Of a DNA stretch of 53,445 bases, positions 6,348-49,637 are shown piece by piece (position 1 is the first letter of the stretch; each line of letters starts with the position of its first letter). The translations under genes and the position numbers were made by a program. Source of the stretch: Elusimicrobiota bacterium (GTDB taxonomy: Bacteria > Elusimicrobiota > Elusimicrobia > F11). The stretch is taken from positions 1 to 53,445 of the forward strand of contig JBJXGI010000086.1 of NCBI GenBank assembly GCA_046153645.1, in the 5' to 3' direction. The notes beneath the pieces were generated by a model, which was not told the origin of the DNA, did not search any database, and saw only the letters and a program-made list of their open reading frames with translations.

Positions 6348-7577
6348 ATGTCAGATCATAAAGAAGAACAAAAAGACGGGGAGAAATCCTCGGATTCCAT
6401 TATTTCTGAGGGCGTTTCCCAAGAGCCTTCAGCTCTCCTTGCCACTGAAACTACCGTTAATGCGCAGTCTCCTATTCCTAGTGAAGAAAAGCCTCCCCTT
6501 CCACCGAATATCAATAACTTAAAAGAAAGTTGGATTAAGGCCAATAAAAAAATTGTTCTTATTGGTGGTTTTATTGTCGTCGCTGGTTTAATGTGGGCGA
6601 TAAACCGTTTTCGTTCTTCGGGAGAGGAGATTAAAGAAGAAACATCAGGTCAAACCACTGCTCCCGATGAAATTTCAGTTAATGCTGTAGAGGCTAGAAT
6701 GGGGCGGTTTCAAGATGTGATCAGCGCTGTGGGAACGATCAAAGGTGAGGCTGAGATTGAACTGCGTTTTGAAGTAGACGGAAAAATAGAAGAGTTTACG
6801 CCCAGAGACGGAGCCAAAATACGTAAAGGTCAGTTAATTGCCAGATTAAGTGACAGAGACGCTCGCCTAAAAGTTCAACGTGCGAAAATTGAACTTGAAC
6901 AGACAGAGAAACTTTTTCAGGTGGGTGGGGTTTCTAAAACCAAATTAGATGAGTCTCGGCTTGATATGGAAGTAGCTCAGAGTGAGCTTGATAAAACGAG
7001 AATTTTTTCGGCGCGTGATGGTATTTTAGGTGATAGAGCCGCTGATGTAGGAGAATTTGTAAATCCTCAACGGAAAATTGGAACATTGGTCTCTATTAAA
7101 AATGTCGTTGTCGAAGTCGGTATAATTGAAAAACAAGTTGATAAGGTTTATCCAGGGCAGAAAATTTTGGTTTCAGTTGACGCTTATACAGGGAATATTT
7201 TTGAAGGGGCTGTTGAGAGTATCTCGCCTATTATTTCCGCCGACGGAAGTAAAACCTTTTCCATAAGAGCTAAAATTCCCAATCCTGATAATTTACTCCT
7301 TCCTGGAATGTTCGCAAGAAGTCGAATAATAACTTACGAAGTTGATGATGCGATATCTGTTCCAAATGATGCATTAGTGAAAACCACCGGAGGATTCCAG
7401 TTGTTTGTTATTACGCCAGAAAATACTGCTGAAGCGCGTGATGTTCAGGTCGGTTATGTTGCTTCTGAATTTACTCAAATCCAAACAGGTTTAAACCCTG
7501 GTGATGTCGTTATTGTTCAAAAACCGCCAGAGCTCAAAGCAGGTTCAAAAGTGAAAGTTATAGAAGTTCAAAAATAA
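6348..7577 (+). CDS. Efflux RND-type periplasmic adaptor (membrane fusion protein)
   Basis: Single TM after a disordered N-terminus; barrel-sandwich hybrid halves (DGKIEEF..GAKIRKGQLIARL; IFSARDGIL..VGEFV), helical hairpin, LLPGMFAR, VPNDALV, GLNPGDVVIV. Confidence 0.85.
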   Translation: MSDHKEEQKDGEKSSDSIISEGVSQEPSALLATETTVNAQSPIPSEEKPPLPPNINNLKESWIKANKKIVLIGGFIVVAGLMWAINRFRSSGEEIKEETSGQTTAPDEISVNAVEARMGRFQDVISAVGTIKGEAEIELRFEVDGKIEEFTPRDGAKIRKGQLIARLSDRDARLKVQRAKIELEQTEKLFQVGGVSKTKLDESRLDMEVAQSELDKTRIFSARDGILGDRAADVGEFVNPQRKIGTLVSIKNVVVEVGIIEKQVDKVYPGQKILVSVDAYTGNIFEGAVESISPIISADGSKTFSIRAKIPNPDNLLLPGMFARSRIITYEVDDAISVPNDALVKTTGGFQLFVITPENTAEARDVQVGYVASEFTQIQTGLNPGDVVIVQKPPELKAGSKVKVIEVQK

Positions 7578-7579
7578 TA

Positions 7580-9031
7580 ATGAAACTGAGAGCGAGATTA
7601 ACTTCTTTTACGGTTTTTTTGGTTCTTCTTGTTTTGATTTTTTCAACAGCTGTTAGTGTATTCACCATCAAATACTTCCTATCTAATGAAGTTCAAATTA
7701 CACAACAAACTTGGATTGGCAATTTTAAGAAAACTCTGGAGGAATCTCTCTATTCTGGTGATGATTTAGCCATTCAATCTTATGGAGAGACTTTGGAGAG
7801 AACTATTCCTGAATTGGGTTATGCTGTTTTTGTTGACCAGTCTCGGGGAGCCATTTTGCTTGGTGGGTTAGAAAGCATTCAACGGTTTAAGAAATTAAGT
7901 CCTGAATGTAAGGGGGACCCTGTCGGAAATACAAACCCACCAGTTCTTATTTCAAATATTACTTCTGAAGGAAATCATTGGCATCATTATTGTCAAAACT
8001 TAGAGCTCGTTAATTTGGTTGGCGGAAAAGTACATGGAACCATTCAGATTGGATTTAGTGTTAATGCAATTCAAATACGCCAAACTGCTCTTATTAAAAA
8101 AATTGTTACTCCTTTAATTGGGGCTATGTTGATCATTCTCCTTGTTGGGGTTTTTCTTGCTTTTATGTTTTCAAAACAATTGACACGACCTATTGCCATG
8201 TTAACCGAAGGCGCTAAGTCGATTGGTGATGGAAATCTTGAGACTCAAATCCCAGTTCATTCCAAAGATGAATTGGGGTTTCTAGCAAAAGAATTTAATC
8301 TCATGGCCAATAAACTTAAAGAACTTGATCAGTTAAAAGATGATTTTGTGTCCAGCGTTTCTCATGAATTGCGTTCTCCTTTATCAGCTATTTCTGGGTA
8401 TGTTGAGTTACTCACCAGTAAACCTTTTGAAGAAATTTCTCCGGAAAAGAGAATGAAAGCTCTTTCTATTATCCAAGAAAGCACGGCTCGATTGACTCAT
8501 TTTATTAATGATATTTTAGATTTAGCTAAAATTAAATCAGGTCATACTGAGCTTCGTCAGGAAGCAATAAATCTTAACGAGACGGCCGAAGATGTGATTG
8601 CTCTTTTACATCCTCTTTTTGAAAAAAAGAATGTTCAATCAGGAATTAGTATCCCCCATGATTTACCGGAAGCCTATGTTGATGATGAAAAACTACGTCA
8701 GATCTTGGTGAATCTTATTTCAAATGCCTTGAAATTTACACCATCCGGGGGCAAAATCATAATTAGAGCGAAAAATCAGGGTGGTTGTATTCAAATGTCA
8801 GTTGAGGACACTGGAATTGGAATTTCTGATGACGCTAAGAGCTCAATTTTCGATCGTTTTAAACAAGCGAAGGGATCAAACCAGGTTTCTGGTCAAAAAG
8901 GCTCAGGCTTAGGGCTTGCGATTGTGAAAGGTTATGTGGAAGCTCATGGCGGAGAAATTTGGGTGGATTCTGAGGTTGGAAAAGGAACGGCAATTAATTT
9001 TACATTGGCGTTTGCGCCGGTATCTAAATGA
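7580..9031 (+). CDS. Membrane sensor histidine kinase (periplasmic sensor, HAMP, HisKA, HATPase)
   Basis: Two TMs; HAMP (DELGFLAKEFNLMA); H-box VSHELRSPL; N-box NLISNALKFT; DTGIG and GSGLGL G-boxes. Confidence 0.95.
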   Translation: MKLRARLTSFTVFLVLLVLIFSTAVSVFTIKYFLSNEVQITQQTWIGNFKKTLEESLYSGDDLAIQSYGETLERTIPELGYAVFVDQSRGAILLGGLESIQRFKKLSPECKGDPVGNTNPPVLISNITSEGNHWHHYCQNLELVNLVGGKVHGTIQIGFSVNAIQIRQTALIKKIVTPLIGAMLIILLVGVFLAFMFSKQLTRPIAMLTEGAKSIGDGNLETQIPVHSKDELGFLAKEFNLMANKLKELDQLKDDFVSSVSHELRSPLSAISGYVELLTSKPFEEISPEKRMKALSIIQESTARLTHFINDILDLAKIKSGHTELRQEAINLNETAEDVIALLHPLFEKKNVQSGISIPHDLPEAYVDDEKLRQILVNLISNALKFTPSGGKIIIRAKNQGGCIQMSVEDTGIGISDDAKSSIFDRFKQAKGSNQVSGQKGSGLGLAIVKGYVEAHGGEIWVDSEVGKGTAINFTLAFAPVSK

Positions 9032-9119: not shown

Positions 9120-9812
9120 ATGCCTAAAAAAAGAATACTAATCGTTGATGATGAACCTCAAATTTGTCAGCTCATAAAAGACGTTCTTGAGGAAAATGCA
9201 TTTACCGCAACGATGGCTCACACAACTGATGAAGCATTTCAGAAATTAAAAGTGACCATTCCTGATCTTATTTTATTGGACGTTCGTCTTCCTACTATTG
9301 GAGGCTTAGAGTTTTGTCGAACTATTAAACAAGACGTTAAAACGCGTGCTCTTCCTGTTATCATGTTAACTGTTCAAGATACTGAAACCGATAAGGTTAT
9401 TGGTTTGGAAGTTGGCGCCGATGATTATCTCACAAAACCATTTGGAAATCGTGAATTATTGGCACGTATTAAAGCCGTTTTTAGGCGAATTGAAATAGGA
9501 AAGTCTGACGAATCTTCTACTATTAAAATCGGTCCGATGGAAATTGATTTGGATATGCATGAAGTGAAATATAAAGGTAAAGATGTTTTGCTGACGCCTA
9601 AAGAATTTGAACTTCTCGTCGCACTAGCGAAAAATAAAAATAAGGCCCTTCGCCGTGAAGCCCTCATGTCTACTGTGTGGGGTTATGATTATCCTGGAAC
9701 ATTAGGAACAATAGATGTTCATATCCGACATTTAAGGAAAAAATTAGGCGACGCTGGTCGATATATCAAAACCTTAATTGGCGTTGGTTATCGCATGGAC
9801 GATAAGCTTTAA
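9120..9812 (+). CDS. OmpR/PhoB-family response regulator
   Basis: REC domain (ILIVDDE, LLDVRLP, GADDYLTKPF) plus winged helix (LTPKEFELL, TIDVHIRHLRKKL, IKTLIGVGYR); RBS GAGAGG upstream. Confidence 0.95.
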   Translation: MPKKRILIVDDEPQICQLIKDVLEENAFTATMAHTTDEAFQKLKVTIPDLILLDVRLPTIGGLEFCRTIKQDVKTRALPVIMLTVQDTETDKVIGLEVGADDYLTKPFGNRELLARIKAVFRRIEIGKSDESSTIKIGPMEIDLDMHEVKYKGKDVLLTPKEFELLVALAKNKNKALRREALMSTVWGYDYPGTLGTIDVHIRHLRKKLGDAGRYIKTLIGVGYRMDDKL

Positions 9813-12445: not shown

Positions 12446-12498
12446 TTAACCTAACCTTAATGAGACCTTAATCTGACACTGTTACGATTCTGTTACAA
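12446..12498 (+). promoter_or_regulatory. Conserved upstream element, copy 1: TTAAY boxes x3 and TGTTAC x2 at 11-bp period
   Basis: TTAACCTAACCTTAATGAGACCTTAATCTGACACTGTTACGATTCTGTTACAA; 42/53 identical without gaps to 49585-49637. Confidence 0.75.
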
Positions 12499-12500
12499 CT

Positions 12501-15500
12501 ATGGTGACTTTAAACACGCTCGATCAAAAACTTTTTGGATGGCCGGGGAAAATTATTCCGCGGTTATTTTCATTTGTAATTTTTTCTGCTTTATTTATTC
12601 TTATTTCCCTTCCTTTAAGCGCGGTTGATCGTATTTGGACAGGTCTTGGGAGCAATAATAATTTTTCAACAGCTGAAAATTGGAGTGGAACCGCTGTTCC
12701 TGGTGCCTCTGACCGAGCTATTTTCGATGGAACCTCTAATAAACCATGTAATATTAATACTGATGTTACCCTTGATACCATTCAAACAACACTAACCTCT
12801 ACTGCCACAATTACCCTTAACAGTGCTAGATTTTTAACGACTACGGTTCTTGATTTTCAGGGAGGAAGTTTCTCCGCTGTAGGGACGAACAATCAAATTA
12901 TTGTTAATAGTACTTTTAGTAAAGCTTCAGGTTTTTCTTTTAATGCGGGGAGTTGCACTGTTGATTTGGATGGATCGAATATCTATATGTTAGGGTCAAC
13001 GACTTTTTATCGTTTGATTGCAGATCATGTCGGCGCGACCGTTAAATTTGATGTTAATGAAACGGTTACCGTTTTAAATTCTCTTACCCTGCGAGATGGC
13101 GTATTCACTTCTTTAGTTGATGGTAGTCATTGGAAATTAAATTTTTTAGGAACTACTTTAATATTACAAGGAGCTCAGATTAAAGATTCTGACGCGTCTC
13201 TTGGACAAACAATCATTGCAGATGCGTCAAATACAAATTTAGGTAATAATATTAATTGGATTTTCCTCGCAGACGAGCCTCAAGCAGTTGGAAATTTACA
13301 AGTGTTCAAAGAAGCTCAAATTGGAGTCACTTGGAATAGTCCCCCTGGTGGAGCGCTTCAATATGAAATTCGTGCTGCGACTTACCCGATTAATAATGGA
13401 AATTTAACTTCTGTTTCGCTTGTTTTTAATATTGCTTCCTCGGTTTCAATATCAACTCAAAGTCTGGCTTTTTCAGTTGGAAATCTTTTGTTTGACACGG
13501 ATCATTTCATCTCAATAAGAGCCAAAAGAGCAGGTGCTTTTGGAGTTGCTAGTTTCGCCGGGCCTGTTCAATCTGGTAGATATTGGAAGCAGGCCGTGGG
13601 CCTACCTCAAGATATGGTTAAGCCCATGATTAAGTTGGGTGATTATAATTTAGATGGATATCTTGATGTTGCTGTTGTTGGGCAAGTGGGTACATCATCC
13701 AAGCTCAGGGTGTTTAGATGGGATTCGACAAATAAAACTTATGTTGGCGTCATTAATGAGCTTATGTTTGGCAATGATCCCTTGGTTGAGTGGATTGATG
13801 TGGATTCAGATGGGGATCTTGACCTTCTTTATTCAGATAGCGTAGATACGAATTTTTTAAGAAATGATTCTGGTGTTTTAACCCAGGCATCGATGGGGAA
13901 TATTTCCGCTTTTGCAAAGGGCGTTTTGGCTTCTGGTGATATTGATAATGACGGTGATGTTGATATTGTTATTTCTGCGCAAAGAACCGTAAATGATACT
14001 CCTGATATCCGTTTTTTAATTAATGAGAATCGCGTTCTTAATATGAGTCAGGAGGTTATAGAAAATAGCGCCATCACCAAAGGTTCATTGGCTTTAGGTG
14101 ATGTGGATTGGGATGGGAAATTAGATATTTTGATTAGCGGTGAATGGTCGGGAACGCGAAAATTAATGATTTACCGAAATGATTCCAAATTGAAGTTTAC
14201 GCAAATTTTAAATGCAACAGGTTTATCTAAGTCAGGCGTAGCGTGGACTGATTATGACGCAGATGGAGATTTAGACTTCGCTACCATGGGAGAGTTGGCC
14301 ACACTTCAAAAAACGGTACGCGTGTTTCGAAATGATTCGGGCTCATTTAACCAGTCTTTTAGTTTTCTACCGAGAATTGATTCAGGTGGAGACGCTCCCG
14401 GTTCGATTGCTTGGGCAGATGTTGATAACGATGGCGATTCTGATTTAATTGTTATGGGGAGTGATGGAACTCAGGCTCGTTTCGTTATTTATATGAACTC
14501 AAACCCAGCAGATCCTTCTACCTGGTCAACGATAACTGAGCCTATTGCCACAAATAAAGGTCTGCAAATGGGGTCCATTGTAGTGGGCGATATTGATGGC
14601 GACGGGCCTGGTCAAAGTGGAGATGTAGACTTTATTTTAGGCGGAAGTGATTCTGGTGGGCCAAAAATGTTCCTACTAGAAAATCTTTATTACTCTACTT
14701 ATTCTTTAACAAATCCCAATGATCGACCGGGAATCCCCCAAACACTTCTTGAAAGCCATTTCTTAGATGACGTTACATTAACTTGGGACTCTGCCACTGA
14801 TTCCGAAACGCCCTCTAACGCGCTTTCTTACCAAATTCAAGTTGCTTCACATAATTTCATTACTAATTCTTATGCGCTTTCCGGTGTCCATGGGACTCCT
14901 CTTTTAGGCAATTATTTTAACAACAGAATTTCTAGGTTGCAGTTGGGCACTAAAGTAAGGCTTATTGATGACGCAACATATTATTGGCGGGTTAAAGCTA
15001 TAGATAATGGAAATGCGCAGGGTTTTTATGTGCAGGCTTCATCATCATTTTATGTTGCTGCTGTACCGCCCGCGCCTATTACTGATTTAGAGGCACTGAC
15101 AGGGGCTCAAGTTACCTTAACTTGGTCGGCCCCTGCTGCACATCCAAACGGAGAGGGAATTATTTCTGGTTATGAAATTTATTATTCCTCGGCGGTTAAT
15201 CCAAATCCAGCGCAACTCGATCCTCCCATCTGGAACAGGTATCTGGCTTCAATAACACCACTTGCTCCAGGAGGAAAACAACAGCTCACGATGACAGGTC
15301 TTACTCCGTTTTTAAATTATTGGTTTGCGGTTAGATCGTTTAATAAAAAAACGTTTTCTGTTAATGCCGCTACAGCGACTGCTAAAGCGGGTCATTTTTT
15401 AGATCTTTCATCAAAAATATCGACGTCATTGGGTTTTTCTAGAGGAAATATTGCGTGGGCTGATTTAGATATTGATGGTGATTTGGATTTTGTGGTTTGC

Positions 15501-18500
15501 GGTAGCACAGGCTCTGGAGTTGTTTCTGCTGTTTATACTTATAATGGATCTCAATTTATTTCCGCGCAAAATTTAAACGAAAAATTAGACAACTGTAATT
15601 TAAGTTTGGGTGATTATGATAATGATGGATGGGTTGATTTGGGTATTCGAGGTCAACTTGCGGGGGGAGGTGCTTCTGGTTCTCGAATTTATATATATAA
15701 GAATAGAGCCAATAGTCAAACTCCGACAAATATATTTAATCCACCAAGCGACTCCATTGTTATTGATCCTTCTTTAAATGTGGGCTTATTTGGTCAAGTT
15801 CAATGGGCTGATTTTGATTCCAATGGAACTCAAGACTTAACTTTTATTGGGGCTAGTGGCGGTCTTTACGCTTTCACTTATAATTCATTGTTGTCTCGGT
15901 TTGAAAGTATTCGTATTTCAACTCAAGGTGCAGCTACAACTGGTGGTTCTTTGGCCTGGGCGGATATAGATTCTGATGGCGACCTAGACGTTGCTTTTGC
16001 TGTGCGAGACGAATCCGCTATTTTAAGGAACCAAGGAAATGGCGTGTTTACTCGAAGATGGACGGGCATCGGCGTTGAAGGCTCACAGCTGGCCTGGGGC
16101 GATTATAACAATGACGGTTTTTTAGATTTAGCACGAACCGGACAAACAACGTCCAATACTCAGATTTTTCAAATTCAAGTTGGGAATTCCAATTTAGATT
16201 ACAACGCGCAGGTTATTAATCTTTCAACAGGAATTCATACGGGCAATCGATTGCCAGGAATGTTGGCTTGGGCCGATTTAAATAATGATGGTTATCCAGA
16301 ACTCATGGGGACGGGGGCCAGAGGCTCATTAGAGTCGAAAAAATTTCTCGTTTTTTCTAATAAACATGCAACCACGCCTGATAGTTTTGAATTAGAAGAA
16401 TTCCCTTTTGGAAAGGATTTTGGCTTTCAGCAAGGGGGACTTGCTTTAGGTGACTATAATAACGATGGAGATGTCGATGTTATTGTTTCAGGTTTACTCT
16501 CCCAGCCTGGAGGCGGAGAAGTTCCTACTATTTCACTTCTCGAAAACTTAGAAAACAATCAAGGGGGAAATGCCCCCATACTTCCCGGGGCGCCGAGTAA
16601 TCTTTCTGCAAGTGTAAGCACCACAACAGGGCTGGCAACTCTTAGTTGGGACGGCCCATCTTACAGCGCTTCTTTAAGAAAGGGATTGTATTACAATGTT
16701 TTTGTCAAAGACCGTGATTCCAATCAGGTCTATATTTCTAGTGCTTATGCTTCTCCTTTATTAGGTAATAATTTGCTTCATTCAACAGGAGTGGTGAAAT
16801 TATCTGTTTCTTTGCCTGATTCGAAATCTTATTCCTTCCGAGTTCAATCTATTAATTCAGCTTTGATGAAAGGGCCTTTTTCAGGATTTGTTAATTTTTC
16901 CGTTCCTGCGATTCCGCCGGCTGTTATTACTGATTTAGCTGGTTTAGAGGGTTCTCAGGTTCGTCTTCATTGGACTGCTCCTGGCGAAGATGGTTCTGTG
17001 GGAACACCCACTCGCTACCGAATTTATTATGCGACAAATAGTTTTACAACGGGTCTTGAACCCGGTGTTTCGGTGTACACCATTGAAGGAATTTCTGCAA
17101 ACCCACCACTCAAAAAAGCAGGAGAACAAGAATCTCGTGATATTCCTATCCTGGTTCCTAATCTTTCATATTTTTTCAGAGTGGCAGCAGAAGATCGAAA
17201 TGGCGCGCGCGCCCCTTTAAGTGGTTCAGTCAATGTGGTTGCAACATATTTTGAAAAAGTCCCATTTGAAAGTTTTTCTGGTTTATCTGAATCTTCATTA
17301 GTTGTCGGAAATACAACAGTTGGCCAAGATTCTTATTTGGATATGGCCATGATGGGTGGAGACTCGACTACGTCTAGAGTATTAAGAGTGTTGGTGGGAC
17401 AAGGGGCGGGAGATTTTAATCAGGTTACTATTGCCAATGAAGGGTTGAAAGATGGCGCGCTTGCTCTTGTTGATATCGACCGCGATAATGATTTAGATTT
17501 TATTGCCTCCGGATTTAATTCTGCAAATACGCCTGTCACAAAAGTGTTTTTAAACAACAATAATTCTTACAGTGTCTTAGGGGCTACTTTACCAGCCATG
17601 ACAAAAGGTTCATTTGCCATTGCCGATATCGATGGAGATGGAGATCTTGATATTGTGGCTGTTGGCAGTGGGTTATCTGGGATTCAAATGTTTGAAAATA
17701 GATCAAATGATTTGGTGTTTAGTTTGCTTCCTCGAACGCTTTATAATGTTTCATTCTCATCCGGAGCTGCTATAACAACTGCTGATATAGATAGAGATGG
17801 GGATATTGACTTAGCGGTGAGCGGTTTTGATGGATTAAAAAACAGATTCATCCTTTTAAAACAAAACGCCGGTGTTTTTTCTGTTTTCAAAGAACCATTA
17901 GGAAGTGTTGATGGCTATAGAAATGGATCCTTGGCATTTGCCGATTTTAATTTAGATGGAAGATGGGATATTGTTGCTTCAGGTGAACGCCAAACTGGGA
18001 GTGAATTGGTCATTTATGAAGGGCCCATCAATCCTAGTGACCCTTATATTGTTCACTCCGCTAACCAACCGATGTCTTCGGCTGCTGGTGGTTCAAATTC
18101 ATTGGTTGTTGGTGATATCAATAATGATGGATACACTGATTTTGCTGTTGTTGGAAGTAGCGGTAATTTGGCCAATGCAGAGAGACTATTTGTCTATATA
18201 AATAATCAAAGTCTTCCTACCGGAGCGCTCAATTGGTCCCGCCAGCAACCGCTGGGAACAAACACTGGTCTTACTAAAGGTTCGTTGGCATTTGGGGATT
18301 TTGATAACGACCGCGATCTCGATTTGGTTGTCACGGGGCAAGTATCAACATCACGAATGATTTATTATTTTAATAATCGACAAGGTGAAGCAGGGCTTCC
18401 TATTAATGCCTCTCCTTCAAAGCCAGCACTTAATTTCATTCGCGATTCTCAAAGTAATCTCGTTACTTTTGATTGGACTCATCCAGGTTCAGAAAATGAT

Positions 18501-21500
18501 CGTATTGCTTATACCTATGATTTAGCAGTTGATTACCGCCGAAATGGAACGGGACCAACTTATCATTTGGTTACAGGACAACAACACTCGCCTCTGCATG
18601 GAAATGTTCCTACCATAGGTCTTGTTTCTTCAAGTCGAACACTGAGTTTATTTGATAACGCAACGTTCTATGTAAAGATTCGGGCTGTTGATACAGGGTT
18701 CCAAGTAAGTCCCTGGTCAGACCAAATTACAATAGATATTGGAAATATCCCTCCTGGCCCTATTACAGATTTTGTTGCAAGCAAATCAGGAAAAATTGAA
18801 TTAACCTGGACGGCTCCCGGAGGTGATGGAAATCAAGGTCAATTACAGTCTTATGAAATTCGATGGACGACGGAAGCTATTAATTCAGGGAATTTTTCCT
18901 CAGCAAACCTATTAAGCGGCATTCCAGCACCAAAACCTGTTGGCAGTGCGGAGAGTTTAATGGCTTCCAATGGTTTTAAAGTTGGGACGACATATTATTT
19001 CGGAATTAAAGGTTACGATGATGCTGGAAATCCAACGCCTTTGGTTACTTCCTCAGCAGTTGCAGGAAACTTTTCACTTGCGCAGACACTCACAGGATTG
19101 GGAGATAGTGCTATTGCCGCGGCTGATTATAATAATGATGGGCACCATGATTTGGTTTTAGCAGGAGAGGATAATTTACAGGGTTGGTTAAATTCAGGTT
19201 CTGGCGCTTTTAGTGCTGATGCTCAAATAAACCTTTCAGGTTTCACCTTTGCTTCAATTGCAGCTCTCAATTATAACAATGATGGAAATATTGATTTTCT
19301 TGTTTCCGGAACTCAGGCGGGAGCGAAAAAAGTTTTCTTATATAAAAATCAACGTCCCCTAACACCAGTATTAATTCCAGATGCGCATTTTAATATGACT
19401 GGTTTTGATGAAGGGTCTATTGCTTGGGGCGATTTTGATCGCGATGGTGATTACGATGCTGCTGTTGCAGGAAAAGGATTAGACGGAATTTACATTTATA
19501 AAAATAATTATAGAGAGAATCCACTCATCCCATTTATTGCTGAAAAAATTGATGACATGGTTTTGTCAAATGGCGCTTCACTGGCATGGGCAGACGCAAA
19601 TAATGATGGAGTTCTCGATTTGGCTGTGGCAGGACAAGATAGTGGTGGGTTTCCTCACTTCTGGATTTTTACTGGTAAAGCTATTGGTGGCTTTAATCCT
19701 CCTTATTTCATGATTCAAACGAGCGGAGCTGAAACAGATGGCTATGCGGAAGCTGCTCTTTCTTGGGCCGATTTTAATGGCGATGGGAAGTTGGATATTG
19801 CTATTACAGGTTATCGAAGAAATGGTCGTGATTCGCGCGTGTTCTTCAATCAAACTTCCGGTGCAAATTTAAGTTTTACCAATACTTCCCTTCCTGGCGC
19901 GGGCCTTTCTTCTGGCCGAAAAACTCAAGGTGCTTTAGTTGTCGCAGATCTTAATAATGATGGAAAATTTGATATCGCTCTTTCTGGAACTGACGGAACA
20001 CGTACAAGGTTCTTCACTTACCTTAACCAGTCTGGGTCTTGGGAATTGGTTGAACCTTTAGGTAAAAATAAGGGTTTAGATAAATCAGCTCTGAGTACCG
20101 CTGATTTCGACAAAGATGGTGATGTCGATTTGGTTTTATCTGGTTTTATGGGTGCAGTAAAACGAGTTTATGTTTTCTTAAATAAAGCAGCAGACGATTC
20201 TGGTTTTGGAGGTGCTAATTCACCACCCAATGCACCGTCTTCATTAACAGCGGGAATAAGTGGAAACCAAATTTCAATAAATTGGCCTGCCACCAGCGAT
20301 CCTGCCTCTGGTGGTCCCACTCCGAGTAACGCGTTAAATTATGATTTAGAAGTGTTAGTCAAACCCATTGGAAATATTTCTTATGACGTTTACCAAAGTT
20401 CGTATTTAGGAGCTCCTCTCCTTGGCAGTATTTCACCTACGCGTGGCGCTAATTTCTCTTATTCTCTTTCTGCCAGAGACAACGCTGATTATCAGATTCG
20501 TTTGCGTGCTGTGGATGCGGGGTTAACGCCTGGTCCCTGGTCAAGCGTACTTTCAACTTCTGTTCCTGCGATTCCACCAGATGCTATTTCAAATTTGGTT
20601 GCAACCCAAGGGTCTCAAATTAATTTGACTTGGACAGCCACAGGAGCTGATGGCAGCTTTGGCCAGGCCAGTGGTTATGACTTAAGATATTGGATTTCGG
20701 GTCAAAGTTATTCAGATCCGTTGGCCGTTTTGGTTGGATTGCCATCGCCCAAACCGTCTGGTCAAATAGAAACAGCTGTTGTTAGTGGGCTTGTTCCTGG
20801 AACTTCATACTTCTTTGGTATTCGTGCCTTTGATAACGCTTCTCAATTTTCTCCCGTTTCAAATATTGTGAATGCCACCGCAGGACTCTTTGAAGGATTT
20901 GCTGATTTAAGTGGACTTAAACAAGGCGGAGTATCTATCGGAAGCCTTTTCCCTGGAGAAAAGAATTTTATTGTGATGGGATCGAGCCAAGACGCTTCAG
21001 GTCAGGCGGTTTTGTATTCATACGCGTCAAACCAAGTGACGTTAAAACAAAATTTAAATAAAGAATTTTTGTCAGGGGTTCCTAGTTTTACTGATTTTGA
21101 TGATGATGGTAAGTTGGATTTAGTTATTGGCGGACAGGTGAAATTTTTCTCAAGTTCTCTTCCTAAAACCGTTTTCTTTAAAAATAATGGGACCGCTTTG
21201 GTTGAACAGCCGGGGATGGAATTATCTTTAGAGCCCAATTCTATTTCTTGGTCTGATTTCGATAATGATGGAGATTTGGATTTATTAATTGGAGGTCAAA
21301 CCTCTGGTTCATCACGTGTTTCACGCGTCTATGAAAATAGAAGTGGAGCTTTTGTTCAAGTATGGGAAAAGTCAACAGGTGGAACAGCTGCCTGGGTTGA
21401 TGTTGATCAAGATGGTTGGGTTGATGTTCTTTTGTCAGGCAAAGGTTTTTTTGCTAATTCCTCTCAAACGGCTGTTTATAAAAATATTTTTGTTTCTTCA

Positions 21501-24500
21501 CCAACAGTTTATTTCCAAGATCCTTCTGGTGCAAATATCATCAGTACAACACTTCAAGGGAATATTTCAGTGGGGGATATTAATTTCGATGGGAGAATGG
21601 ATTTCGCCCTCGGTGGAAGAGACGAATTAGCTGAAGTGAAAGTGTTTCGTCTAAGCGCTAATGGTTTGTACGATACAACACCCCTTTCAACTGGCATTTC
21701 ACTTAGTTCTTCCACCTTTGTGTGGGGTGATGTTGATCATGATGGAAAAATGGATTTACTCGCTTCAGGTTACGATTCATCTTCTCAACCAAGATTTCTT
21801 CTTTTCTTTAATCAGGCGGGAACCTTATCTGCGCCGATTGAACCCTTGGCTCCTTTGTCTTTTGCTAATGGGTTAGCTCTCGGTGATTTGGATAATGATA
21901 AAGATTTAGATTTGGTTTTGTCAGGTAACAGAGGTTCTCAAGGTTACGTGCGAGTTTTGAAAAATGTCGTAAATCGAAATGCCAGTCAAAACAATAATGA
22001 ACCTGCTCAAGTTGTCGGGCAACCAGAAGTTCTAACTGGTTCCCAATTGACGATTAACTGGAATGCTCCAGCTGATGATAAAACACCAGGATCCGCATTG
22101 CTTTATGAACTTCGTATTGCCACTGATCCTGTTGCTTCAGCTACAAAATATGTTCGAAGTCCTTTCCCAGCCTCTCCTTTTATGGGACATGTCAGCACCA
22201 CCAGTATTAAATTAACAGTTCGAGATGCAGTTACTTATTACTGGTCTATTCGAGCCATTGACGCAGCTCTTCTTCCAGGTTCATGGAGTGCGCAACAACA
22301 ACGTTTTATTGGTGGAATTGCCCCCGCACAGATTGTTGATTTCAAAGCAGAAATTGGTATGCAAGTAAAACTAACTTGGACGGCCCCAGGCGCAGATGGC
22401 AATCAGGGGACTGCGTCTTCTTATGTGATTCGATATAGAGAAACTTCTGATCCCTCAAATCCACCAACATTCCCTACTGACCCTTCTTGGAAAGTTGTGA
22501 CTTCTCCAACCCCTAAAATTGCGGGTACAAAAGAAGAATGGGTTGTTTCAGGTTTAATCCCTGGTTCAAAATATCAATTTGGAATTTATGCCGTTGATGA
22601 TGCTGGCTTAACAGGAGCTGTTGCATTTTCTAGTACCGCAACGGCCTCTCATTTTGGAATCCAATTTTCTCCTTTTGGAAATGATTTTGGAATTGAGCGT
22701 GGTGATGTTGCATGGGGAGATATGGATGCCGATGGGAAAATGGACTTTATTGTCACTGGTGCCAGTAACACAACAAAAATAACACAAATGTATAGACAAA
22801 CCATAAATGGATTTGAATTATTTAGCAATCCTATTGCACCCACCAATTTTTTAGAGCTTGATTCAGGCTCACTTGCCATTGGCGATTTAGATAATAGTGA
22901 TTTGTATCTTGATTTTGCTGTGACTGGTCGAGATGCAAGTGGCGCTGAGCAACTAAAAATTTATCGTCAAATTCGTTTGCTTGAGTTTAATGAACAGACA
23001 TTACCTTACGGTGTATCAGATTCTTCATTGGCTTTCGGTGATGTAGATGGAGATGGCGATCAAGACTTAGCCATCATGGGAACTCATAATTTTGGGTCTT
23101 CTTATCGATTATTAGTTTTAAAAAATAGGGGTGTGGCTTTAGGTTTAGCTTACGATAGTAATTGGGATTTAAGTACAAGCTCTGGGTGTTCTCAAGGACA
23201 GATCCAATTTGTTGATATTAATAATGATGCCAAATTGGATCTAGTGGTTTTAGGAAGAAGAAATTCTGATTCATTTTTGAAAGTTTGGCTTAATACCGGA
23301 AATCCAATCCAACCTTACAACAGTGCCCTGAATATTGATACCGCTAATTTTTCCTTTGGAAGTTTAGCCGCCGCTGATTATGATAATGATGGTGATATCG
23401 ATTTGATTTCAAATATTTCAGGCCAACCAAGAATTTATCGCAATCAACTTAAAGAAACAGGAAATTTGGTTTTTACAACTCTCAATTTAGGTTTACCGGG
23501 TCTTCGTTCCGGCCGTGTGGCTTGGGCAGATGTTAATTCTGATGGATTCCTTGATTTAATTTATAACGGTACCACCGGTTCTGTTCGAAGAATGTTGGTT
23601 GTTCCTCAATCTATCGCTTCAGGAGCGGGGGGACAACAAAGTGTGGGGTTTGATTCTTCTAAAGCTCAAGATCTCTTCGGTGCACAAAATGGAATTGAGA
23701 ACGCTTCTTTAGCGATGGCTGATTATGATCTTGATGGTGATCCTGATTTATTATTAATCGGGAGAAACAGTTCACTTCCTACCACAAGGAAATTCCTTTT
23801 ATTGAAAAACTTTGATATTGATCCCATCCGTCCTGGTCGATCGAATCCTATCCCCAGTGTGCCGCAATCTTCAGGCGTCACATTTCAATATGATGGAAAT
23901 CAACTGAATGTTCGATGGAATCCATCAACAGATGTGAATGCTGAGACAAATTCATTAACGAACTCACTTTATTATGCGGTACAAATTAAATCTTTTAATG
24001 AAAGCGCTACTTTTGTTTCCGGTTCTTATGGCACACCTATGTTGGGTTCATTTATTCGTCCTCCTCTTATAGGGGGGAAATTACAATATTCCATTTCAGG
24101 TCTTCCCGGGTCTGGCGGCAGCTACAAAGTTTTCTTAAAAAGCATAGATTCAAGTTTACAACCCGGCAACTGGTCCAGTGCCGCTCCTGTTACTTTGGAG
24201 GAAGTGAGTCGTCCTCTTAATGTTGTGGGAACTCCCAATAGTTATAGTCAAATTACTTGGTCTTGGGATCCGCCACTTCAGGCTTCTGGTTTATTGGGTT
24301 ATAGAGTTGTAACGACTTCTGGTGTGGCTGTTTCTCCAAATCTTCCTATTAGTTCAACTTCATGGCAAGAGTCAGGTTTGTTATCAAATACGCTTTATCA
24401 AAGACGAGTAGAAGCTTTCAACCTTGTGATGACATCGGCTTCCGTTATTGCCTCTACCAGGACTTTGGTGAGAACTTTTGATGGTGTTCCCAATGCGCCT

Positions 24501-27500
24501 ATTAATTTTTCTGCCATACTTTTATCAAACACCACGGATTATCAATTTATCAGACTGAATTGGGAAGACACAAGTCCAACGGTTTCGCCCAATGATTTTC
24601 AAGCAGAAGGGTATATTGTAGAGCGATCGACTCTCCTTGCCGGGCCTTATAGCCAAATCGCCAGTGTTGTTCCAGCTACAACAACTTATTTAGATCAAGG
24701 ATTAATGCCGAATACCTCCTATTATTACAGAGTATTTGGTTTTAATGCAGTTGGTTTAAGTTCATCTTCTTTGGTGGCGGTAAGAATGACTCGCTCGCAA
24801 AAACCAGTGAATCCTGTTTTCTTCTCCGCTCATTCCAGCTCTATAACAGTTAATTGGTTAACAGATCATCCTGTGGGAAGCCGATTCGAATTACACATGG
24901 CGACTTCTTCAGATTTCTCAGGAATTATTTATTCTTCTATTAATGTGAAAGCACTTTCACAGCAATCAATGATTGGGGTTGTCACCTCGCTCCCTTCATT
25001 AACAACTTTTTATGCTCGAGTTAGATCGCTCTCGGACGCAATCGATTTGCCGCCTTCCGCAACTGATTTTGTTAATGTCCCGGGTTTCAGTGTTACCTTG
25101 GCGCCCGTTATTAATTTATCAAAACCAGTTATTAATCAAGTAAGGCATCTACCCAATCCCATAGATTATTCAAAGTTAGAAATTCTTTGGAGTACAGTTT
25201 CATTGGCGCAAACATATTTATTAGAGAGAAGTTTATCTCCTAATATTGGTTATATTTCAATTGCCACCTTGAATGACCCCACGACCTATTATGTTGACCC
25301 TGGTGTTTTAATTGCAGATAGTTCTTATTATTACCGTTTAACAGCTCAGGCAGGGAATAACGTTTCTCCTAAATCTGATGTGAAAGCTCTTCGCACCAAA
25401 TCAGCTCCTGTTTTATCTTGGGCTCCATTTAGCGTTTTTCAATCAAGCATGATTGTTCAATGGTCAGCGCCCAATAATCCAGCGACTGTTCGATACGATC
25501 TCATTCGTTCAACCAATAATTTCCAGACTGTTCAAAGCACCACATTGGCGAGTTCAACTTCTTCTATCCAAGGGGGAATTTTCTCCTCTCCACTTGTTCC
25601 CAATACAACCTATTATTTTAATGTGAGGTCTTCAAACCGAGATAATATCGTCTCATCTAATTTCTTGGATGTTCCCGTTATCTCAAGTGTCACTTTAGCG
25701 GCTCAACCAAATGCGGGCAATTACACAAATGTTGGAGCAGATTATTTGACTGCAAATTGGACAAGTATTAATCCTAATAACACTTTATTCATCGTCCAAA
25801 TTTCCTCTGATTCAAATTTCCTTCAAAACGTTATTGAACTTAATACCCAATCCAATAGCGCGATTTTCTCATCATTAGAGTTCGATACAGATTATTTTGG
25901 CCGGGTCAGAGCCATAAATCATTCTGGAATTCCGACTCAATGGAGGTTACTGGGAAGTACGAGAACACTTCCGAGCGGGGCGCAACTTCCTCGTCCAACT
26001 AATTTAGTTTTAACAGTTCTATCATCTGAAACCATTCGTTTAAATTGGTTAGATAATTCATCGAATGAAAGCGCTTTTGCTGTTGATAGAAGTGCTGATG
26101 GAACCAATTGGATCACCATCTCAACAAGTATTCCTTTAAATACAACAACCTATGACAATACGCAGCTTAATCCCAATTCAACTTATTATTATCGTGTCCG
26201 AGCGATAAATCCTCCTTTTACTTCGCTTCCTTCTGATCCAGCAGTGGCTGTTACGTTGGCTGATAATCCTAGGGCATCAGTTGTTCCTTTTATTGTTTAT
26301 GAGACCAGCATGACTGTCAATTGGTTGGCGGCCAATAATCCTTTTAACACCAATTATGAAGTGAGATGGTCATCCGCCGGTAATTTCTCTTCTCAAAATG
26401 TGGGCGCCACTTTAGCTGCTTCGCTCACTGGTCTTTTGGTCAACACAACCTATCAGGTAGATGTCAGAGCACTTAATTTCGCAAATCCTAGTGTTCCCAC
26501 AAATTGGGTTAATTTGGGATCACGTGCAACCCGAGCTGTGAACGTTAGCTCTATTAGTATTTCACCTGTTTACATTTCGAGTGTGGTTGTTAATTATAAT
26601 GTGGGAAGTAATCCCGCCGGAACTCGTTTCGAAATAAATGCTTCAACTGAAATTACTTTTACGCAGATTGCGACCTATCATACAACCAACGACATTAATT
26701 CAACGATTGTTTCCGGTTTAGCGGGCGGGACAACTTATTATTTCAGAATAAGAGCGATTAATCACGGTGGCCTTCCCACCGTTTGGACTGTATTTGGAAA
26801 TTCAATTAGAACCAATGATCCGCCATTCCCACCTATACCCCCAACAGGATTTAGTTTCACAGCTGTATCGAGTTCTACAATTTCAACTCAATGGAATCCT
26901 TTGGTGGGAGCGACTGATTATAAACTTCGCCGCCGATTAAATGGAGGGACGCCTGTTGAGTTTTTAGTTGGGGGAGCCATTAATAGCTATACAGATGGTT
27001 TAATTTTAGCGTTATTACCTAATACCACTTATGGTTATCAGTTAATGGGAATTGATGGTCAATTTAGCACGCTTCCAACCGTTGAGATTACAACGGCAAC
27101 ATTGGCCGCGCTTCCCGGTGCGCTTACTTCATTGAGTGTTACTTCTTCTCAGATATTAGCGTCTTGGAATAGTAATGGTAATCCTTTAGATACCACTTAT
27201 GTTGTCGAAGTTGACTCAGGCTCTATTTCTTTTGTGACGGTGAGTTCTCCTGCTATGTCAATTTCAAATTTAACTCCCAATACCAATGTGAGTTTAAGAG
27301 TGAAAGCGAAAAATAGATCAGGTATTGAAACGGCATTTACACTTTTAACAACGACGGTGACAAAAGCGGCTCTTCCTTCGCCTGTTCAGAAAGATGTGTT
27401 CACAAGTTCTTTTAGTGTGGTTTGGGGAAGAAATGGAAATCCTTTAAATACAATTTATGAAATCAATGTGACAACGGGGACGGGTTCTGTTTTCTTTTTA

Positions 27501-30500
27501 TCTACAACTTCATCTCGAGCAGATGTCCCAGCAGTGCCTAATACCAGTTATTATTTTATTTTAAGTGCGATTAACAGTGCTGGAGACCGAGTATCACTTC
27601 CACAAGACACTTTAGTTACCAAGCCCGCTCGTGTGGCCGATGCCACCTTAAGAATTTTTGTCAGTTCTGCTGATGTTCAGATTATTAATGCAAATGGAAA
27701 CCCCTCAGACACAATATACCGATTGACCATTACAACTCCTTCTCGCTCGAATGAAGGTGTGGGGCCTGGGCCTATTGCAGTTGCTGGTTTAACGGCAAAT
27801 ACAACTTATTCCTATCAGTTGGTGACTGTTGGTCGAAGCGGGTTGTTATCGGCGCCTTATGTATTACCTTCCAGTCCGACACTTTCGGCTCCTCCCATAA
27901 ACGGTCAGATTGTGTTGAGAGGTGTGAGTTTCATTAATGCTTCTTGGGCAGCCAATGGAAACCCTGTCAACACGCTATATGAAATGGAGACCATTGAACA
28001 AGGACAGTTTTCAGGAGTTCTTTCACCACGCTCAATCAACCTTAATGCTCAAGGAACACCTCTACAAGCTGACACTTTCTATACGTTAAGGTCACGTTCA
28101 ATAAATCATTCTGGGATTGTTTCTGATTGGACAACGATTGCTACGACATCAACACTTCCAACAAGCACATTAATTTCATCTCCTACTAATGTGGTTGTCA
28201 CGCCACCTGTGGACGGAGTAACAACTCCCAAACTTACTTTAACATGGGATCCTGTTATTAATCCGAATGTTCCTGACCGGTATATTATTTTCAGAGTTCA
28301 AAGCGGTCTTATCCAAATTGGGACCACTTCATTTTTAAATGAAATTTTTGTGGATACCGGAAGTGTGACAGCACCCATGGTTCCTAATACAGAATATTCA
28401 TATAGAGTTGCCGCAGGAACGGGTGCCGTGGTGGCTTATTCGAGTGTCGTGTCTTCGGCTACCTATGCGGTGCAACCGACATTATCATCTACCCTACCAA
28501 CAGCAACGACAGGAAGTATCACTGTTTTTTGGGCTGATAGCGTGAATCCGAATACACCCAATTATCGAGTTGAATTATCGAGTAATAATTTTGTGAGCCT
28601 CTTACAAACACAAGTAACACCCTTTAAACAAATTACTTTTGGAGGACTGACTCCGAACACTTCTTATTACACAAGAGTAAGAACCATTAATATTCGAGGG
28701 ATCGCCACTCCCGCAACTCTTTTACCTATTAAGGTGACTTTGGCAACTCCTGTTGTTGTGGGTGTTCCACCGTTTGGAACCGTCAATTCACATTCGATTG
28801 AAGCTCGCTGGATTAGCAATAACCCAGCCAATACAACTTACTTAATTGACACCACTTGGAGTGGGGGGAATGGCCCATCAAGTCTCACTCAAAATCAGTC
28901 AAGTGGTGTGGTTAGTGGTTTATTCCCCAATACACTTTACAACGTGTTTGTTCGCGCGATAAATCATGAGGGAATATCCACTACTCAAACTCTAATTGGT
29001 TCGACAAGAACACTGGCCAGCGTTAATATTTCATCTCCAACAAATTTGATTGTAACTCGCCCAGCAGCTTCTATTTCAGATCGATTGATTTTACAATGGC
29101 AAGATAATTCTTCAGGAGTTAATGAAGAAGATGAATTTGCCATCTGGCAGCAAGCTCAAGGCGGACCGGTTGTTTTGGTCGCAACGGCTCCGGCTGTATT
29201 AGGTCAAGGAACGACTACTTCATTTACGGTCACCAATTTAAATCCCAACACGCGATATTATTATTATGTTGTTGCTCGTAAATTTACCGGTGGCGTTTGG
29301 GAAAGTTCATTGCCTTCCAATACCGATGACGAAATCACTTGGGCTCAAATTCCCGTATGGAGTGCGCCTTTTATTAATCGGACTGATAAATCTATCACTG
29401 GGTTTTGGTCACAGGGATCCAATCCTTTGGGAACACGTTACCGCTTAGAAGTTTCCAGTGATTCGTTTAATCTTATTTCATCAAGTGAAACCTCTGGTTT
29501 GTCGGCACGAGTAGATGGTTTGTTATCGAACGCTATTTATCAAATGCGGGTTCGTGCCATTGACCCTGCCCCTGGATTATTTTCAACACTACAAACTACA
29601 AACACACTCGCGGCTGTTCCGGGTTTTGTTTTTGTGGGAGAACCATTTACTTCTTATGTTTCTTCTATAACAGCACGTTGGTCTTCAAATGAAAATGTTT
29701 CTGATACCACCTATCGGTTGCAAGCTTATTTGGATGAAGCATTAACCCAATTTGTTGGAAGTCAAGACACCCTTAATACAAGCGCGAATATAGCTGGGCT
29801 TTTGCCAAATACAAGTTATTGGTTTACCGTAAAAGCCGCCCATCGTGATGGGGGATATTCTGATGTTCAATTGTTGGGGGTTGCTGTTACTTTGCCAACC
29901 ACATTTGGGTTTACGGCAAACCCCTCTTCAAGCGCAACTTGGTATGGAAAAAACACTCTGATTGGGTACGCCAGTTTTACTTTTACTTCTAATGGGTATC
30001 CAACCAGTTTTGATTATGTGAGATACATTTGGTTGCCCTCTCAGCCCAGTTTTGTTTGGCCATCGGATTTAAATCAAAATAATATCCCCAATATTTGGCG
30101 ACCTGATCAGGGGCCGCTGGTTATTATTTCCAGCTATAGCGGACAATTTTATCTTCATATGAAGGGATACAATTATGCGGGGCAAAGTCATGTGGGCGCA
30201 GAAATTTCTACGGGCGCTTTCAAAGTAGATTTAGATATTCCCAGCCCCAATCCTTCTGCGTTTTTAAATGTGATTCGAAGTACAGACAGCATTGTTTGGG
30301 AGGGCCAATTCACGACGGATGCTGGAGACCCCAACGGTTCTGGCTTTGACGCATATGGCTGGACGTTTAATGCTGGAACAGAACAATTTTTAAGTTCGTC
30401 TGTATTAACGACGAATGGATTATTAGCCAACACGAGTTATGCCATGATGTTACGAGCAAGAGATTTTGCCGTTCCAGCCAACTACACATTACCCGCCTCA

Positions 30501-38704: not shown

Positions 38705-39031
38705 ATGAATCGGTTTTTAGTTCTTGTGGCCTTTGTCCTCATTGGAATTTCTGCCCAAGTTTATTCCGCAGAAACCTATGCTTTTCCCAATCCCTATAGA
38801 GCCAATGTTAATCCGAATATCACTTTCACAAATCTGCCTGGCTCAGGCACAATTGAGATTTATAGTATTTCCGGTGAAAAAGTAGCACAACTCTCTATCG
38901 CTCCAGGCGAATTGTCTAAACAATGGAACGCCACCAACGATGACGGAGAAAAATTAGCCAGTGGTGTTTATATCTATATCGTTCAAGCCGGCGGCCAAAC
39001 CTCCCAAGGAAAAATAATCGTTATTACCTGA
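38705..39031 (+). CDS. Signal peptide plus a stand-alone T9SS-like (FlgD-Ig/type-A) C-terminal sorting domain
   Basis: Signal peptide ending VYS-A; YAFPNPY..ITFTNLP..IEIYSISGE..WNATN..LASGVYIY..GKIIVIT aligns with the last ~90 aa of the giant protein. Confidence 0.8.
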   Translation: MNRFLVLVAFVLIGISAQVYSAETYAFPNPYRANVNPNITFTNLPGSGTIEIYSISGEKVAQLSIAPGELSKQWNATNDDGEKLASGVYIYIVQAGGQTSQGKIIVIT

Positions 39032-39054
39032 ACACCCTATACCTTTTTTTTGAA

Positions 39055-39089
39055 AAGGGCTTTGCTGTTAAGACGGCAAGGCTTTTTTT
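39055..39089 (+). terminator. Intrinsic terminator after the giant-gene operon
   Basis: GGCTTTGCTGT-taag-ACGGCAAGGCT stem with G:U pairs, followed by a T run. Confidence 0.75.
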
Positions 39090-39112
39090 ATGTTCGAATA
39101 AACTTTTTTAGG

Positions 39113-39151
39113 TTGTTATGTCGAATCTGTTCATGTACACTTAGTTGTACA
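39113..39151 (+). promoter_or_regulatory. Toxin-antitoxin promoter/operator with paired TGTACA palindromes
   Basis: TTGTTA(39113)-N17-TACACT(39136); TGTACA at 39134-39139 and 39146-39151 (12-bp offset), overlapping the -10. Confidence 0.7.
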
Positions 39152-39163
39152 AAAGGGGGAATT

Positions 39164-48939: not shown

Positions 48940-49017
48940 AATCCCTCCCTGTTTGGTCGCTTTAGCGACCGAACGGGGAGGTTGGTGGGGGGGATTAATG
49001 GGTTTTTCCTTATAAAA
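48940..49017. repeat. Left inverted repeat with hairpin, flanking the DUF559 gene
   Basis: AATCCCTCCC..GGTCGCT-tt-AGCGACC..CGGGGAGGTTGGTG7ATTAATGGGTTTTTCCTTATAAAA; reverse complement of 49394-49452 apart from the hairpin loop, a 2-G indel and one substitution. Confidence 0.85.
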
Positions 49018-49333: not shown

Positions 49334-49393
49334 ATTTCCTCACCGGATTAAGACATGAGGAGGGGATTTAGAGGGGAATTTAATTCTAAGATA

Positions 49394-49573: not shown

Positions 49574-49637
49574 TTAAGGCCATCTTAACTTGACCTTAAT
49601 GAATCCTTAATCCCGCACTGTTACAGTAGTGTTACAA
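49574..49637 (+). promoter_or_regulatory. Conserved upstream element, copy 2: TTAA boxes x4 and TGTTAC x2 at 11-bp period
   Basis: TTAA at 49574, 49585, 49596, 49607; TGTTAC at 49619 and 49630; matches 12446-12498. Confidence 0.75.

Follow-up and report, generated by a model that had tools for sequence, protein, structure and literature searches.

The window analysed here, the whole of a 53,445-nucleotide contig from an Elusimicrobiota bacterium (assembly GCA_046153645.1, contig JBJXGI010000086.1), contains a giant gene for a secreted cargo protein, an operon that begins with a PorV-like gene, and, upstream of both, a two-component system with an RND adaptor (Table 1). The giant gene has a predicted leader of ~6 nt without a Shine-Dalgarno sequence; the PorV-like gene has a leader of ~52 nt and a GGAG motif. 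Between them lie a small sorting-domain (CTD) gene and an inserted member of another giant-protein family, the upstream boxes of which are degenerate, with a -10-like TACAAT 6 nt before its GTG. An earlier note on this DNA, made from the sequence alone, had recognized the PorV operon correctly but incompletely, as the operon runs on via contig C87, where TolC is followed by an RND pump, a 305-aa protein and another RND pump. The adaptor is likely the partner of the TolC protein and the RND pumps behind the second element. It is encoded 45 kb upstream of these pumps, next to the kinase gene, which is reminiscent of mdtABC-baeSR.

Several smaller genes fill the intervening DNA. A Phd/YefM-ParE toxin-antitoxin pair (39050-39744) separates the cargo genes from the inserted giant gene, and a different toxin-antitoxin pair is found at the same place in a related genome (G008). 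A DUF559 gene on the minus strand (49010-49333) lies between the arms of a 29-nt inverted repeat at 97% (48989-49422), and this segment, just above the second element, looks like a small mobile insert.

The giant gene and the PorV-like operon are each preceded by a copy of a 53-bp element (12446-12498 and 49585-49637). In an ungapped alignment, the two copies agree at 42 of 53 positions, and all 11 mismatches fall outside the TTAAY and TGTTAC boxes, exactly as first described. We denote TTAA(C/G/T) as the A box and (G/T)TTAC as the B box; the element then reads A-N6-A-N6-A-N8-B-N6-B, plus a weaker fourth A box upstream. This fourth box, already seen as TTAAG at 49574 in the second copy, is a weaker TTTAG at the matching position of the first (12435). 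The boxes had also been written as CC-TTAAY at an 11-bp period; the period is correct, but the CC does not extend to the first TTAAC, which is preceded by TT or TC in each copy. The first B box overlaps a TAnnnT hexamer starting 10 bp after the last A box, and the B pair is out of phase with the A array.

The first copy was compared without gaps to every position on both strands of the 2.63-Mb source genome (G000). Apart from the match to itself (53), the best score was 42, for the second copy; the next was 33, and both 33/53 runners-up are promoters with the box order B-B-A-A described below. Outside the boxes, the window pair is identical at 0.66 of 32 positions, compared to 0.46 ± 0.11 for 13 pairs of different genes within one genome; 42/53 is thus at the high end of what shared constraint yields.

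Table 1. Coordinates of the genes and promoter features in the window, with the evidence for each.
Feature	Position	Strand	Basis
RND periplasmic adaptor	6348..7577	+	TIGR01730, 185.6 bits (cut-off 94.9)
HAMP histidine kinase HK1, likely partner of RR1	7580..9031	+	Domain search
OmpR-family regulator RR1	9120..9812	+	Domain search; best candidate A-box reader (inferred)
Three A boxes: TTAAC 12446, TTAAT 12457, TTAAT 12468	12446..12472	+	Sequence, 11-bp period; predicted activator site in place of the -35 element
B-box pair TGTTAC-N5-TGTTAC over the -10 and the predicted start (~12495); predicted repressor site, function inferred from position	12480..12496	+	Sequence and conservation at 23 sites
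Predicted -10 hexamer TACGAT	12483..12488	+	10 bp below last A box; genome-wide 10-bp spacing peak
Secreted FG-GAP/FN3 protein of 8,730 aa; T9SS type A-like sorting domain at the C-terminus	12501..38693	+	TIGR04183, 23.8 bits (cut-off 23)
Small stand-alone sorting-domain (CTD) protein	38705..39031	+	Domain search
Other giant-protein family, member of 3,010 aa; gene inserted between both elements	39857..48889	+	No Pfam family
Four A boxes: TTAAG 49574, TTAAC 49585, TTAAT 49596, TTAAT 49607	49574..49611	+	Sequence
B-box pair over predicted -10 TACAGT (49622-49627) and predicted start (~49634)	49619..49635	+	Sequence
PorV/PorQ-family barrel with fused TPR repeats; opens the second operon	49686..51662	+	NF033709, 159 bits (cut-off 90)
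TPR protein, second gene of the PorV-like operon	51665..53044	+	Domain search
Start of TolC-family gene, continuing on contig C87	53041..53445	+	20-nt contig overlap (C79 end/C87 start)

Promoter geometry and conservation

The distance between the A array and the hexamer is strongly preferred. The pattern TTAAK-N6-TTAAK-Nx-TAnnnT has 25 exact matches in G000 at x = 10, 21 of which are non-coding, compared to 0-6 matches at every other x from 5 to 16. We labelled the Elusimicrobiota family of the source genome f1 (12 genomes, G000-G011). The A-A-N10-TAnnnT core is present in 8-25 copies in each of these 12 genomes, while the reversed-pattern control gives 0-2. The reading of the hexamer as a -10 element is supported by its final T, which is present in 12/12 matches although it lay outside the search pattern. 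The preceding TG, which had been interpreted as part of an extended -10, is not a general feature: it is found at 18 of 29 sites of the window layout and at 2 of 79 other core sites, and the G belongs to the B box.

The A array ends 10 bp (11 bp in four variants) above TAnnnT, where a -35 element would be. The TGTCAY-N5-TGTCAY boxes of the f1 genomes, which precede pstS (G002, G006), phoB (G008) and a porin/pst operon (G000, G008), also end 10 bp above TAnnnT in 12 of the 30 loci examined (from 46 matches). Given this equal gap and the tandem direct repeats of ~11 bp, the A array is laid out like an OmpR/PhoB activator site that takes the place of the -35 element, as in PmrA and PhoB promoters (PMC10570014) and in agreement with the regulator class first proposed. 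Among 87 core sites from seven relatives, 26 have an ATG start codon at the preferred distance of 6-7 nt below the hexamer, which fits leaderless messages, with predicted starts at ~12495 and ~49634 as the earlier note had guessed. Canonical TGTCAY boxes are also found in most f1 genomes upstream of a small PilZ-domain gene (L376, L379, L381-L383, L395, L398, L400; G000 C85:126696), which may therefore belong to the phosphate regulon.

Footprinting in relatives located the window layout at 23 sites in 10 of the 12 f1 genomes and in none of the 109 other genomes of the class (reversed control, 0). The third A box is TTAAY at 23/23 f1 sites, even though it was not part of the search pattern. An exact GTDB-wide scan returned 10 matches, eight of them in Elusimicrobiota, including Ca. 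Obscuribacterium magneticum and fen_1177; the other two, in Bacteroidota, are without the third A box and seem to be chance matches. We take f1 to be family fen_1177, the family within order F11 to which both of these named genomes have been assigned (10.1101/2022.07.08.499144). A metagenome scan gave 43 matches: by blastp, 19 stand before members of the same four gene families, one unrelated sequence accounts for 14, two have no gene downstream in the locus, and eight are other, AT-rich matches, among which L492 also has a blastp match that was not counted. L492 lies on a metagenome contig of 25% GC and has A/B-like boxes before an alkaline-phosphatase-like gene of an unrelated low-GC organism, possibly a Bacillota-type PHO box that uses similar letters.

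The element follows particular genes. It is present upstream of 8/8 f1 PorV-TPR orthologs with upstream DNA, three of which have one extra base; this count excludes three matches without upstream DNA, and the G002 copy is on another contig. The cargo gene carries it in nine genomes (G000, G001, G002, G003, G005, G006, G008, G009 and G011), the junction being outside the loci examined in G004, G007 and G010. The cargo gene of G002 (L002:1544-3040) starts with an alkaline phosphatase domain, and those of other genomes with FN3 or FG-GAP domains; different cargo N-termini thus stand under a constant promoter. Further targets of the window layout are a third giant family (six genomes), another PorV-like gene and two single genes. 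Members of this third family (L350:1711-19500 in G008; L335, L337, L339, L340, L344) exceed 5,900 aa and contain long repeats, with no Pfam match in the first 5,000 aa and no match to their N-terminus in G000. A variant with an inverted B pair over the -10 precedes a PorV-like gene in G000 (C43), G006 and G010.

Non-box identity across genomes is 0.645 for the same gene and 0.45 for different genes, and the hexamer also differs by gene, being TACAGT for PorV (6/6 PorV-TPR copies compared) and mostly TACGAT for the giant gene. Since the promoters follow their own genes across genomes, the element is old rather than a recent copy. Its conservation across f1, the invariant third A box and this gene-by-gene descent bear out the proposal of a promoter-like element under selection, and we consider it almost certainly a real promoter.

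In the sister families f4, f10, f14 and f15, none of 19 PorV-TPR loci has the element, and a CTD-type gene ends just upstream in each; here the DNA was judged by eye (translated for G024, G035 and G020), and some loci may be paralogs. The small CTD gene lies directly 5' of the second element in G001, G011 and G008, with the toxin-antitoxin insert in G008. Since the two genes are adjacent without an element between them in 19/19 sister loci, the cargo and PorV-like genes were probably one operon ancestrally, and the second copy is probably an internal promoter gained in f1. The earlier idea that cargo and export genes form one regulon therefore holds for this set, where each has its own copy in f1, but not as a general rule: in G000 the window layout is directly upstream of 1 of 17 CTD-bearing genes and 2 of 22 PorV-like genes, and thus does not govern cargo and export in general.

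A sister layout of the same boxes

The first account of the boxes was correct for the pair of elements but overlooked a much larger set of genes that are headed by these boxes in reverse order. In G000, many giant genes are preceded by B-N6-B-N6-A-N6-A-N10-TAnnnT, with all four boxes in phase, and are mostly leaderless. A weight matrix trained on relatives only has 28 matches in G000, most of them before giant genes. In the giant family gathered by iterative search from the N-terminus of the 39857 gene, the four-box layout (≤1 mismatch) is found at 16 of 45 genes, compared to 1 of 454 background genes. The flanks of the sister layout fit direct repeats better than a dyad; in the window layout, the A pair has inner flanks that partly resemble a dyad and outer flanks that repeat directly. 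Behind the RND operon, a 6,623-aa gene has a B-B-B-A-A promoter (C87:10483-10612), with a second A-rich promoter-like site ~90 bp upstream.

The A and B box types keep strictly to their own places in each layout. When sites in G000 were selected on B-B plus the -10 only, the two proximal boxes were TTAAK in 12/16 and 11/16 and KTTAC in none. Conversely, selection on A-A plus a downstream B-B gave TTAAY as the next upstream box at 27/27 Elusimicrobiota sites, never B. A B pair at the activator position (B-B-N10 followed by the -10) has 0 occurrences in G000. A second spacing peak, B-B-N18-TAnnnT (eight matches), was discarded, as its hexamer is the TAA of the last A box in 7/8. The reversed order at so many genes suggests that the TGTTAC pair is a repressor site in the window, maybe read by a second protein.

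A B pair with a -10 ~32 bp on is present in f1, f10, f14, f15 and f4, and at 1-7 copies in f5. In f4, the proximal A box is shifted by one base and loosened (TTAAK at 0/29 in the usual place and 7/29 one base on). In f5, the A box is replaced by GTAAC/GTGAC/KTTAC, and the proximal box is B-type in 13/25. Four-box promoters of f5 (L250, L252, L230, L231, L240) head genes for a SprA-like translocon, a secretin, a LysM protein and single-domain response regulators, and one adjoins two OmpR-type regulators. The f5 promoters may represent an older form of the regulon.

Candidate regulators and the proposed switch

G000 encodes six OmpR-family regulators, among them RR1, RR2 and those on contigs C33, C76, C20 and C48, the last two being covered by the regulator tree. 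The 9120-9812 protein (RR1), named in the earlier note as a plausible regulator, remains the best candidate for the TTAA boxes, but not necessarily for the whole element, as a second protein may read the TGTTAC pair. RR1 adjoins its predicted target. Close orthologs are present in 11/12 f1 genomes, 15/15 f10 genomes and both f14/f15 genomes, and in none of 92 others at E 1e-62. Its DNA-binding domain (last 73 residues) is 95% identical across 11 f1 genomes, compared to 84% for RR2 (below). The HK1-RR1 operon is itself headed by B-B-A-A in 4 of 17 f10/f14/f15 loci (four genomes, all of the genus g17; some loci are truncated), and no A/B site precedes it in the window or in nine f1 loci. The recognition helix is altered in the f4 ortholog of RR1 (tree support 0.985, with synteny in G024), in the very family where the A box differs; this apparent match of helix and box represents one evolutionary change among kin. 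Against RR1 as the reader, eight of the 15 f10 genomes and the f14 genome have RR1 but 0-2 exact A-A cores. Taken together, RR1 has a somewhat better than even chance of being the A-box reader.

The most likely reader of the B boxes is RR2, an OmpR-type regulator on contig C6 (17726-18421). RR2 is found in 11/12 f1 genomes, 11/15 f10 genomes and f14, and more weakly in 7/12 f4 genomes; partial copies are present in G006, G064 and G066, and none was found in G059 or G087. Its helix is kept in f1, f10, f14 and f4, where the B box is also kept; f5 is the exception. In 5 of 7 f4 loci, a B pair lies ~6-22 nt before the estimated start of RR2, and none was found near RR2 in 11 f1 loci; in G000, neither the RR2 locus nor the SprA-like gene has an A/B site nearby at ≤4 mismatches. 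Although f5 has B-B promoters, no regulator placed in the tree from three f5 genomes falls into the RR1 or RR2 clade, in a tree in which one of 24 loci was not extracted and deep branches are weak. In G064 (98% complete), which has 22 B-B sites and one exact A-A core, the RR2 ortholog (L406, G064:C1:196566-197048) aligns only over residues 1-161, with a stop, reflecting a frameshift or an assembly error.

In the mechanism that we propose, phosphorylated RR1 would bind the A boxes head to tail and substitute for the -35 element of a sigma-70 promoter; an OmpR-type activator on these boxes is very probable. The second regulator, most likely RR2, would bind the B boxes. Where these lie over the -10 and the start, RNA polymerase would be blocked, and the B pair is quite probably repressive in the window layout; where they lie upstream of the A pair and in phase, their occupation would help activation. 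If only RR1 is active, the cell would produce the giant FG-GAP/FN3 surface protein together with its dedicated PorV-like partner and the TolC/RND exporter; with both regulators active, this cargo/export set would be turned off and the other giant family on. The second copy of the element would have arisen in the f1 ancestor as an internal promoter when the cargo-PorV operon split or lengthened. On balance, we expect the A and B boxes to be read by two distinct proteins, and we give about an even chance to the full prediction, in which one OmpR/PhoB-type regulator turns the element on, a second turns it off, and two surface programmes come under opposite control.

The main rival explanation is that one OmpR-type regulator, RR1, reads both box types at different affinities; the window layout would then be on at low and off at high activity, B-B-A-A would need high activity, and the result would be a graded reciprocal switch. 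There are precedents for both halves of this idea, as a single Bacillus PhoP reads four TT(A/T/C)ACA boxes at an 11-bp period, spanning TTTAC and TTAAC (PMC11870197), and CtrA activates and represses one promoter via -35 and -10 sites (PMC11264516). The common phase of the four boxes in the sister layout, the frequent B-type proximal box in f5 and the stronger conservation of the RR1 domain also favour it. However, A and B never mix at any position in either layout. Low-affinity sites are usually simply degenerate versions of the box. In f4, moreover, A changes while B stays, and the B pair there precedes RR2, not RR1. We therefore regard a single graded regulator as unlikely, and a reading of the boxes by altogether different proteins as improbable. 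The latter could involve a dyad-binding dimer on TTAAG-N5-CTTAA (LysR-type, or the Fis-type helix of the adjacent NtrC-like gene), or a downstream B pair that is neutral or activating; TTAA is palindromic, the window layout has dyad-like inner flanks (JS 0.013 and 0.156), and A pairs serve divergent genes. These features are countered by the third, often fourth, box that extends the 11-bp array, by the directly repeated outer flanks and by a 10-bp gap equal to that of true pho boxes. For the NtrC-like reader in particular, G006 keeps the element though the NtrC-like gene is not adjacent.

The remaining explanations are far less probable. The B half-site equals the Bacillus PHO half-site, the G002 cargo starts with an alkaline phosphatase domain, and automatic annotations name RR1 relatives 'PhoP', all of which count in favour of a phosphate (Pho) regulon with the PhoB-like regulator encoded next to pst on contig C33 as its reader. 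The boxes before the G000 porin/pst operon and before pstS and phoB of relatives are TGTCAY-N5-TGTCAY pairs, not A or B, so these targets do not place the element in the Pho regulon. The pst-linked regulator also forms its own clade reaching f5, where B-B promoters head response regulators, secretin, LysM protein and a SprA-like gene. Since this regulator has its own TGTCAY boxes, the A/B system is not the phosphate regulon, and we consider such membership very improbable. A recent promoter duplication in G000 without shared control would account for the high non-box identity of the window pair (0.66 vs 0.46 typical), but is largely refuted, and highly improbable, given that each promoter tracks its own gene across f1 with its own hexamer, and that the boxes are invariant while the spacers vary. 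A PmrA/CusR-like regulator on contig C76 has a TAA-type site beside its gene and a helix with PmrA's Thr-Asn pair, resembling the PmrA contact residues (PMC10570014); it was rejected as a reader of the TTAA boxes, with only a minimal residual probability, for its patchy distribution, as the query used did not find it in 6 of 11 motif-bearing f1 genomes or in 15/15 f10 genomes.

We thus return to two regulators, with the element likely acting as one half of an on/off switch between two cell-surface protein sets. A more tentative, though possible, extension is a two-regulator gate in which moving the B box from above the activator site onto the -10 toggles two envelope programmes (one adhesin-like giant plus an export operon, or dozens of mostly leaderless giants), as a separately evolved, CtrA-like master switch of life stages in an uncultured phylum. 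If true, RR1, RR2 and both layouts would be nameable parts that can be tested in a heterologous host. What appears to be new is the rearrangement of two strictly separated box types into two layouts over many giant-protein genes, mostly leaderless, and an internal copy through which an operon that has been split would stay under common control; OmpR-type boxes and repression by position are, as such, well known. A literature search on Elusimicrobia/Elusimicrobiota found no publication on this promoter, which is a weak negative, since the phylum term was partly not required and subscription papers or bioRxiv supplements may hold the motif; the main text of a study of giant genes does not contain the word 'promoter' (10.1101/2023.11.21.568195). 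The element bears on the function and expression timing of giant bacterial genes, tying a 26-kb gene, its export partners and a second giant family to one set of boxes, and it comes with candidate regulators that are named and with a clear-cut prediction, opposite expression, that is testable without culturing. In several Elusimicrobiota families, the motif can further serve to locate start sites and members of the regulon.

Comparison with known systems

The element would work like PmrA-, PhoB- and CtrA-type promoters, but its candidate regulators do not score as orthologs of any of these proteins. Of the two regulators scored, RR1 and RR2 reach 154.6 and 158.3 bits on the PmrA profile (cut-off 330), 146.8 and 151.4 on CtrA (350), and 212.2 and 164.8 on WalR/YycF (340), all below the cut-offs and arguing against orthology; RR1 reaches 219.6 bits on the PhoB model TIGR02154 (cut-off 296.2). 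The WalR motif is TGTWAH-N5-TGTWAH. PmrA (BasR) binds XTTAAY-N5-XTTAAY over the -35 region (PMC10570014), and both the half-site letters and the 11-bp period equal those of the A boxes, which likewise replace the -35 element. With the hexamer placed at -12 to -7, the A pair would span ~-39 to -23, a position intermediate between that of the PhoB site (-41 to -25) and that of the pmra-box, located four bases lower (PMC10570014). The present element differs from that of PmrA in having three or four boxes rather than two, a second box type over the -10 and giant exported proteins as targets. RR1 also lacks the Asn that PmrA uses on AA bases, in an alignment by eye with residue spacing from PMC10570014.

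The four TT(A/T/C)ACA boxes at an 11-bp period that form the PHO box of Bacillus subtilis and Lacticaseibacillus PhoP (PMC11870197) resemble the B half-site (TTTACA/GTTACA) and the sister four-box layout. This half-site is matched by the B pair and TTAAC, not by TTAAG or TTAAT; the proximal pair here is TTAAK instead of TTHACA, and the targets are not phosphate genes. The E. coli pho box also consists of two 11-bp direct repeats, with different letters (CTGTCAT; PMC4415409, PMC10294691), and PhoB activates or represses according to site position (PMC10294691); for this regulator family, repression from a site over -10/+1 is established. Caulobacter CtrA, a master controller of surface structures, recognizes TTAA-N7-TTAA, which the A pair matches exactly and at the -35 position; CtrA sites activate at -35, and at hemE a second site over the -10 represses (PMC11264516). 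In the element described here, however, the predicted repressing site has different letters.

[quoted passage not shown] By profile scores, the cargo CTD and the PorV-family protein both qualify as T9SS parts. A SprA/Sov-like protein of 1,801 aa is encoded elsewhere in G000 (C100:33154-38559; L374:7155-12557), matching TIGR04189 with E 1.5e-25 and 88.7 bits, below the cut-off of 200; a search of the genome for GldN gave no match, and neither did its control. Unlike in Bacteroidota, the PorV-like gene is fused to TPRs and shares one operon with TolC and RND pumps. The 22 PorV-like and 17 CTD-bearing genes, together with the SprA-like protein, suggest a T9SS-like system outside Bacteroidota.
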